A stretch of 1,217 bases of DNA. Origin: Escherichia coli. Its GTDB lineage: Bacteria; Pseudomonadota; Gammaproteobacteria; Enterobacterales; Enterobacteriaceae. Below the pieces are notes generated by a model. It saw only the letters and a list, made by a program, of their open reading frames with translations. It had not been told where the DNA came from and made no database searches. Location: NCBI RefSeq assembly GCF_003334255.1, contig NZ_QOWU01000171.1; one strand, written 5' to 3'. Made by a program: the position numbers and the translations under genes. This document shows positions 1 through 1,217 of this stretch, piece after piece; the stretch's first letter is position 1, and each line of letters starts with the position of its first letter.

Positions 1-893
1 GCGCTGATTATCTGCTGCAGCATTTCTGCCGGTTTTTCGCACGGATGTTTCCCGGGATAGTACTGCACCGGTTTATGCGTCCACACATCGGTGTACGGCA
101 CCTGCACCGTCACACCAAAATACCGCCGCAGATGCTTATATTCACTCTGCAGTTCCGTATACTGCCGGTTCAGTTCACTGTATGTGCTGACCAGTTGGTG
201 ATGTGGCTTTTCCAGTTCTCCGCGCTGATGCTTCTCTTCTGCCACCCGGGCAAACAGCGCCTGTAATTTCAGATAATCGCTTTCGTCCGGTAGCTGCCAC
301 TGGCTGGCACTGAACCAGTGCGACACCATGTTTTTCTTTCCTGTGGCATCAGCAATCTGTTTTGCCGTTATCCCCAGGGCAGCACGCGCATCACGAAAGT
401 AAGAAATCAGCGGGGCCATCACATGCTGTTTCAGTGCCCTGCCCTTCGCCTCATACCCGGCATCTTTCGGGCGATACGGCCCCTGATAATGTTCCGCGAA
501 CAGAATGCGCTCTGTGGCGGGGAAATATGCCCTCAGGCTTTCCTTGTTGCACCCGTTCCAGCGTCCGGACGGCTTCGCCCAGATAATATGGTTCAGCACA
601 TTGAAGCGTTCACGCATCATGATTTCAATGTCAGACGCCAGGCGATGGCCACAGAACAGGTAAAGACTTCCGGCAGGTTTCAGCACCCGCCAGAACTGCG
701 CCAGACACTGGTCCAGCCATTTCAGGTAATCATCGTCGCCCTTCCACTGGTTATCCCAGCCCTCAGGCTTCACTTTAAAGTACGGCGGGTCCGTGACTAT
801 CAGGTCAACAGAATTTTCGGGTAACGACCGGATAAATTCCAGGCAGTCGGCGTTGATTAACTCACAACTGGATATTTTTACAGTATTAAGCAT
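1..893 (-). CDS. DNA methyltransferase, beta-class (motif IV before motif I), probably N6-adenine-specific; 3' end truncated by the window edge (297 codons visible). Start ATG at 893..891.
   Basis: Reverse-strand translation from ATG 893..891 is open for 297 codons to position 1 with no stop, and an in-frame TGA lies two codons upstream of the ATG. Residues 30-38 read DLIVTDPPY (DPPY at 780..791), the catalytic motif IV of amino-MTases. Residues 283-288 read HPCEKP (30..47), matching the HPxxKP element that in YhdJ/M.RsrI-type enzymes sits just before the FxGxG AdoMet motif, which would lie beyond position 1. The three plus-strand ORFs in the track are antisense to this frame. Confidence 0.9.
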   Translation of the reverse strand, partial: MLNTVKISSCELINADCLEFIRSLPENSVDLIVTDPPYFKVKPEGWDNQWKGDDDYLKWLDQCLAQFWRVLKPAGSLYLFCGHRLASDIEIMMRERFNVLNHIIWAKPSGRWNGCNKESLRAYFPATERILFAEHYQGPYRPKDAGYEAKGRALKQHVMAPLISYFRDARAALGITAKQIADATGKKNMVSHWFSASQWQLPDESDYLKLQALFARVAEEKHQRGELEKPHHQLVSTYSELNRQYTELQSEYKHLRRYFGVTVQVPYTDVWTHKPVQYYPGKHPCEKPAEMLQQIIS

Positions 894-904
894 GGATCAT
901 TAAG

Positions 905-907
905 CCT
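905..907 (-). promoter_or_regulatory. Weak candidate Shine-Dalgarno (AGG) for the methyltransferase, with a long 11-nt spacer to the ATG.
   Basis: Minus-strand sequence upstream of the ATG is GACAGGCTTAATGATCC-ATG. The only purine-rich SD-like triplet is AGG at 907..905, and its spacing is longer than optimal. Confidence 0.25.
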
Positions 908-925
908 GTCTCTGATAGGCTCATT

Positions 926-944
926 CTGCTTTTGCGCAAAGCAG
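926..944. promoter_or_regulatory. Imperfect 19-bp palindrome CTGCTTT-TGCGC-AAAGCAG in the methyltransferase leader; candidate operator or RNA hairpin.
   Basis: Seen directly: 926..932 ctgcttt is the exact reverse complement of 938..944 aaagcag, with a 5-nt centre tgcgc. It lies 33-51 bp upstream of the methyltransferase start codon. No T-tract follows on either strand, so it is not a terminator. Confidence 0.3.
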
Positions 945-1029
945 TGGGCCTGAGGTTTGCTTGTGATCCGGACGCATGAGCAGATGGCTGGTGAGTGCCC
1001 CTAACACCCACCAGCCGCCCATTTACCAC

Positions 1030-1057
1030 AAATAAAAAAGCCTTCACTGCGGAAGGC
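1030..1057 (-). terminator. Rho-independent terminator on the minus strand: 6-bp stem GCCTTC (1057..1052), 6-nt loop, stem GAAGGC (1045..1040), then TTTTTTATTT (1039..1030).
   Basis: Seen directly: plus-strand 1030..1057 is aataaaaaag-ccttc-actgcg-gaaggc, whose reverse complement gives a perfect 6-bp GC-rich stem followed by six T then ATTT. The stop codon of the upstream gene (1046..1044) sits inside the loop and 3' stem. There is no T-tract on the plus strand, so it is unidirectional. Confidence 0.6.
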
Positions 1058-1217
1058 GTCTGTAACAACCGAACTGATAGTCTGCCAGACCCGCCATAAC
1101 CAGCTGGGTCAGTATTAACTGGCAGCGTTCGCGTGAAAGGTAAGTATTCTGCGCAATCTCCCCGACTGTCGCCGGTTCGGTGGCACTTAATTCATTAAAC
1201 ACCACTCTGGCGGTTTC
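1044..1217 (-). CDS. 3' end of an upstream gene (57 codons visible plus TGA stop at 1046..1044); hypothetical protein with a winged-helix/HTH-like C-terminus, possibly a phage replication or regulatory protein. 5' end lies outside the window.
   Basis: Reverse-strand frame entering at 1217 is open for 57 codons (ETARVVFNELSATEPATVGEIAQNTYLSRERCQLILTQLVMAGLADYQFGCYRRLPQ*). The composition looks protein-like, with an HTH-like pattern (TVGEIAQNTYLSRERCQLILTQLVMAGL). The stop is immediately followed by a hairpin plus T-tract terminator on the same strand. Function is inferred only from the motif pattern. Confidence 0.55.
   Translation of the reverse strand, partial: ETARVVFNELSATEPATVGEIAQNTYLSRERCQLILTQLVMAGLADYQFGCYRRLPQ

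Follow-up and report, generated by a model that had tools for sequence, protein, structure and literature searches.

An Escherichia coli prophage gene predicted to encode a non-specific N6-adenine DNA methyltransferase of the M.EcoGII family

The DNA analysed here (the window, 1,217 bases of an E. coli contig) carries most of a methyltransferase gene which is very likely an orphan, prophage-borne orthologue of M.EcoGII, producing non-specific N6-methyladenine (m6A), probably expressed late under the control of a Q-like antiterminator and with a presumed role in anti-restriction. The enzyme itself is already known, as the gene is an ordinary allele of a well-characterised and very widespread prophage family.

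The gene lies on the minus strand with its ATG at 893..891, and translation gave 297 uninterrupted sense codons up to position 1, where the frame is still open; the last 55 codons with the FxGxG motif thus fall beyond the left edge of the window. Translation, a Pfam match and identity to M.EcoGII led to the assignment of 1..893 (minus strand) to an M.EcoGII-family gene for a beta-class N6-adenine DNA methyltransferase, of which it holds the N-terminal 297 codons. The full-length gene was found in a near-identical E. coli locus (L001, DNA 99.3% identical to the window) and comprises 1059 bp or 352 aa. Catalytic motif IV, DPPY (residues 35-38), is encoded by bases 780..791 on the minus strand, where gtacggcgggtc reads GAC CCG CCG TAC as reverse complement, and aligns with the DPPY of 9c3u/8urk and M.RsrI. 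Similarly, the reverse complement of bases 30..47 (CAT CCG TGC GAA AAA CCG, minus strand) gives HPCEKP at residues 283-288, which represents the conserved HPxxKP element before motif I and aligns with HPTQKP of 9c3u/8urk. Direct reading therefore showed both motif positions of an earlier reading of the sequence alone (the sequence-only reading) to be exact. The Pfam profile N6_N4_Mtase (PF01555), proposed there as a check, matched residues 29-296 of the window protein with E=5.3e-22 over model positions 1-175 of 221, the match being incomplete at the C-terminal side because the window stops there. Motif I, for which the same reading had looked to the gene continuation, is present as FFMGSGST at residues 309-316 of the full-length L001 protein. 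With DPPY N-terminal (window), a central target-recognition domain and FxGxG C-terminal (seen in L001), the motif order is that of the beta class, so that the proposed beta-class amino-methyltransferase agrees with both motif order and PF01555 match. A Dam-type alpha-class (GATC) enzyme was rejected, as it needs FxGxG N-terminal and DPPY C-terminal and the order here is reversed. An N4-cytosine methyltransferase was rejected as well, since its typical motif IV is SPPY or SPPF instead of DPPY and the nearest characterised relative makes m6A (PMC5778455).

The central target-recognition domain spans about residues 160-237, of which residues 160-203 correspond to bases 285..416 (minus strand) and the rest reaches to about base 183. 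These limits were taken from an AlphaFold2 model of M.EcoGII, in which the domain is a four-helix bundle containing a helix-turn-helix (PMC11551740); a weak Pfam HTH_3 match was detected at residues 167-195 of the window protein. Comparison with solved structures led to similarity to beta-class enzymes only at the protein ends (residues ~8-114 and 281-345), and the central ~170 residues are without a counterpart among the solved beta-class methyltransferases matched, namely 9c3u/8urk, M.RsrI (1eg2), CcrM (6pbd) and M.MboIIA (1g60). These four share the Rossmann core, DPPY, HPxxKP and FxGxG with the full-length protein but are sequence-specific and lack the central domain. On the opposite strand a 168-aa ORF (318-824, plus strand) runs antisense to the gene, which is probably spurious because its equivalent in an Stx2c phage locus reaches only 121 aa.

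The whole window shows 99.3% identity to E. coli chromosomes, 96.4% to Escherichia phage 1720a-02 and 86.9% to phage phiP27, and many Stx2a-, Stx2c- and Stx2d-converting phages rank next together with phiP27. In a scan of viral contigs, all relatives returned were 94-100% identical, which added context but no diversity. Read along the coding strand, L001 shows a Q-like antiterminator gene (phrog_127, E=3e-111), a pR'-like promoter, a terminator, a 65-aa ORF, a second terminator and the methyltransferase gene, followed by tRNA-Ile, tRNA-Arg, a TolA-like gene, a NanS-p-type esterase gene and holin, lysozyme and spanin genes. Phages 1720a-02 (methyltransferase AGR48369) and phiP27 (an Stx2e phage; methyltransferase L24, NP_543076) share this order, with small ORF, terminator, methyltransferase and tRNAs again as one module downstream of Q, but carry stx after the tRNAs where L001 has the TolA-like gene. 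The gene therefore sits in a lambdoid prophage late region, and the prophage-like setting of the sequence-only reading was borne out by this gene order. The slot after the tRNAs (L001 6926-7354, L002 4945-5451, L003 3209-4444, and downstream of the tRNAs in L005-L084) is occupied by variable cargo, with stx, a TolA-like lipoprotein, a TerB-like tellurite-resistance protein, phrog_2873 or phrog_406, and it is here that Stx phages are known to carry their morons. When stx occupies this slot it is transcribed late from pR' (PMC6266700), and for O145 Stx2a phages a paper had already pointed out a 'transcriptional regulator' and a 'site-specific DNA methylase' lying together between q and the tRNA genes. 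In L065 (2501-3547), a natural 349-aa allele of M.EcoGII type is preceded by the same small ORF, terminator and leader as in the relatives of the window and followed by three tRNAs, but the Q gene there is of a different type. As Q differs in L065 and no more than 36 of the 84 loci have the Q of L001, the stretch from small ORF to tRNAs is exchanged as a module among different late-control regions. Phage 1720a-02 carries a separate Dam-like gene in its early region.

Within the window, an intrinsic terminator was detected at 1040..1057 on the minus strand, followed by a T-run at 1030-1039 and overlapping the last codons of the small ORF. Its sequence is GCCTTC-CGCAGT-GAAGGC, then TTTTTTATTT, and it corresponds to the terminator which the sequence-only reading had noticed behind the upstream neighbour. 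The loop occurs as two alleles, CGCAGT in the window and AGTCCT in L001 and most relatives, with the stem kept; the two alleles alter the C-terminus of the small ORF (LPQ* versus LQS*). In the Stx2c phage locus L004, two stem pairs show compensatory changes. The two terminators of L001 are located at 9385-9370 and 9057-9040. After Q, L001 shows a promoter-like site, TTGATT-16 nt-TGgTAAATT followed by AACGATGGG, which a simple scan did not call and which is much like lambda pR' with its pause element. A promoter scan of the window, leader included, gave no sigma-70 promoter-like site. The 10-nt sequence TGTGGTAAAT occurs twice on the minus strand, once as the extended -10 of the pR'-like promoter after Q (L001 9436-9445, outside the window) and again directly after the small-ORF terminator (window 1021-1030), in both cases followed by GGGCG. 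The repeat flanks the cassette of the small ORF and may be a scar of recombination or the vestige of a second promoter.

Between this terminator and the methyltransferase ATG lies a conserved and strongly structured 5' leader of about 150 nt (894..1039, minus strand). Folding of the RNA (885-1062) led to z=-4.3 compared to shuffled sequence, and the leader contains a 20-bp hairpin (GGGCGGCUGGUGGGUGUU...CACUCACCAGCC). Its sequence hardly varies among 83 related loci and is, in Stx2c phages, better conserved than the coding sequence (~85% identical). Due to this near-invariance a covariation test of the leader in the 83 loci was uninformative, and compensatory pairs were observed only in the stem of the small-ORF terminator. 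An Rfam scan of L001 7400-10400 for known RNA families detected the two tRNAs only.

The 349-aa beta-class enzyme M.EcoGII comes from an O104:H4 prophage and methylates adenines regardless of the surrounding DNA sequence (Murray et al. 2018, PMC5778455). The window protein is identical to the M.EcoGII sequence printed in Table S1 of PMC11551740 at 284 of 297 residues (96%), and to the M.EcoGII-type allele of L065 at 287 of 297. Both values are given because the printed text was machine-read; this exact sequence was not found in the protein collection searched, and the L065 allele differs from it solely at sites resembling reading errors. The real substitutions are N98S, S164A, S191P, D203N, A212S, T246M, Q249L, H254N and H273Y, while a tenth difference at residue 2 is seen against L065 only. 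The identity of 96-97% extends over all 297 visible residues, the target-recognition domain included, where only four substitutions were found in comparison to the M.EcoGII-type allele (S164A, S191P, D203N and A212S). At the C-terminus, M.EcoGII (349 aa) ends with DLIV and the full-length relative of the window protein (352 aa) with NLVSQNG. M.EcoGII, which likewise lies in a lambdoid prophage (of E. coli O104:H4 C227-11), shares fold class and motif order with the window protein. Its paralogue M.EcoGI differs from it at 16 of 349 residues, and the two enzymes are regarded as promiscuous alike (PMC5778455), so that the window allele falls inside the known divergence of the family. It is also 96% identical to the methyltransferase of phage 1720a-02, which Murray et al. 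called very similar to M.EcoGII (PMC5778455). Homologues from O111 strains (~93% similarity) are listed as 'nonspecific' in a REBASE-based table, and reconstructed ancestors, although far more divergent, are still non-site-specific (PMC11551740). From the identity to M.EcoGII, the kinship to the 1720a-02 enzyme, the O111 homologues and the non-specific ancestors, the best prediction is that the gene encodes an N6-adenine methyltransferase acting on any adenine. The N6-adenine type proposed by the sequence-only reading thus agrees with the identity to characterised M.EcoGII, whereas its statement that the target specificity is unknown is outdated, as any adenine is the target of the family (PMC5778455).

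Nevertheless, the nine or ten substitutions, of which four are in the target-recognition domain, could in principle alter the behaviour of the enzyme, and databases list the protein as 'site-specific DNA-methyltransferase'. Both would fit an orphan N6-adenine methyltransferase with an undescribed motif, acting as a sequence-specific epigenetic regulator in the lysogen. We regard this as very unlikely, since the protein is nearly identical to an enzyme shown to be non-specific, non-specificity holds in the family over much greater divergence, and the name in the databases is of a generic kind assigned automatically. Furthermore, no additional methylation motif was detected in O111 lysogens carrying the homologues, and two terminators without a promoter-like site upstream of the gene also argue against a function in the lysogen. 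A restriction partner for the enzyme had to be considered too, as the window ends within the gene with the downstream neighbour out of view. No endonuclease gene was found downstream in L001, in the two phage genomes L002 and L003 or in the 66 related loci (of 84 in all) with at least 1.5 kb of downstream sequence, and clustering of the downstream ORFs from these 66 loci led to esterase, StxA/B and small cargo (TolA-like, TerB-like and phrogs of unknown function), none of them nuclease-like. From this lack of a downstream restriction endonuclease in the related loci examined, the methyltransferase is an orphan, as the sequence-only reading had suggested. The locus of phiP27 (L003) contains a gene of the GIY-YIG nuclease family between Q and the small ORF (L22, 409 aa, 6451-7680). 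It could be taken as a hint that the methyltransferase belongs to a Type II restriction-modification pair with its endonuclease just outside the window, but it lies two genes upstream, is not adjacent to the methyltransferase gene and is absent from L001 and L002. Moreover, the related loci show tRNAs, then stx, small cargo or the NanS-p esterase, and then lysis genes, and a non-specific methyltransferase cannot have the usual cognate sequence-specific partner, which makes such a pair extremely improbable. Membership in a Type II system, which needs an adjacent endonuclease, was therefore rejected, with the small ORF and Q upstream and tRNAs, cargo, esterase and lysis genes downstream.

The remaining alternative is that the prophage is cryptic and the gene a remnant in decay, without function. 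Murray et al. described the host prophage of M.EcoGII as cryptic (PMC5778455), and partial copies of the methyltransferase exist in databases, though most of them at contig ends. Against this, the 297 visible codons are uninterrupted, cloned M.EcoGII is highly active, and the full-length protein of the nearest relative was found in identical form on at least 250 contigs, with 4,845 members in its 90%-identity cluster. Alleles differ by few and mostly conservative substitutions, which suggests purifying selection. A remnant is accordingly a reading to which we give very little credence, and the active, non-specific orthologue of M.EcoGII is preferred.

For this orthologue the following course of events is proposed. 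The protein would be a beta-class S-adenosylmethionine-dependent enzyme, probably dimeric, converting adenine to N6-methyladenine in essentially any context. Its chemistry would be that of M.EcoGII, from which the Rossmann core, the four-helix target-recognition domain with helix-turn-helix, the dimer and the non-specific binding of nucleic acid are borrowed. RNA polymerase transcribes the late unit of pR' only if Q suppresses termination. Late and Q-dependent expression of the gene is suggested by gene order and terminators, and the literature found on its Q-dependent transcription consists only of descriptions of gene order. In the lysogen, transcription would end at the two terminators and the toxic enzyme would not be made; the two terminators and the negative promoter scan point to such silence. 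After induction, RNA polymerase modified by Q would pass the terminators, leading to late production of the enzyme and heavy adenine methylation of the replicating phage DNA before packaging. The packaged m6A DNA would then be shielded from those restriction systems of the next host that are blocked by m6A. No expression of M.EcoGI and M.EcoGII was observed in the normally growing lysogen and their over-expression slows growth (PMC5778455), and a position in the late unit would account for both the silence and the toxicity upon forced expression. An anti-restriction role is a published hypothesis for the M.EcoGII family, which we infer here for the window allele. Heavy m6A would also expose the phage DNA to methylation-dependent nucleases.

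The small conserved ORF upstream is represented in the window by the C-terminal 57 of its 65 codons and the stop (1044..1217, minus strand; 65 aa full length in L001). It belongs to phrog_331, and some copies are annotated as 'TrmB family' in RefSeq. Among E. coli genomes, 2,268 gave matches to it, at 4,241 places in all, and 2,325 gave matches to the whole window, at 4,483 places; the ORF hardly ever occurs apart from the methyltransferase gene. At the corresponding place in the Stx2c phage locus L004 there is a homologue of 49% identity. The sequence-only reading had described a winged-helix-like protein at this place. The ORF (given as 1044..1205 in the window) indeed turned out to be real and conserved, but the fold label is left with Pfam matches to winged-helix families that are all below threshold (TrmB with E=1.3e-3, MarR_2, HTH_24 and DprA_WH). 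An NCBIfam search gave no match, and a single-sequence AlphaFold2 model (four helices, pLDDT 78) led to no significant match in a search of PDB structures. The ORF may nevertheless be a winged-helix protein.

A comparable arrangement is known from Mom of phage Mu, which is also a late adenine modification of a phage, silent in the lysogen, toxic, and encoded directly downstream of a small gene. Mom is grouped with M.EcoGII in a review (PMC12707154), but belongs to an unrelated protein family with a different chemistry, the carbamoylmethylation of adenine. The small gene of Mu, Com, activates translation, and the small ORF is likened to it by position. By this analogy, small ORF, terminator and structured leader might form a dedicated control module that times or limits production of the toxic methyltransferase, an idea which is unlikely to hold. 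If it did, the module would play a part like that of Com for mom in Mu, or of the C-proteins in restriction-modification systems, and would be more than a stretch of the late transcript.

DNA similar to the window was found in 2,325 of 5,426 complete E. coli genomes (~43%) at 4,483 places, with up to seven copies per genome, and it thus carries little weight as a discovery. Characterisation of the M.EcoGII family dates from 2018, and its founding member now serves as a tool for labelling chromatin and RNA. The value of the present analysis is one of annotation, since records name a 'site-specific' enzyme while the evidence is for a non-specific adenine methyltransferase in a phage late operon adjoining the Shiga-toxin slot.
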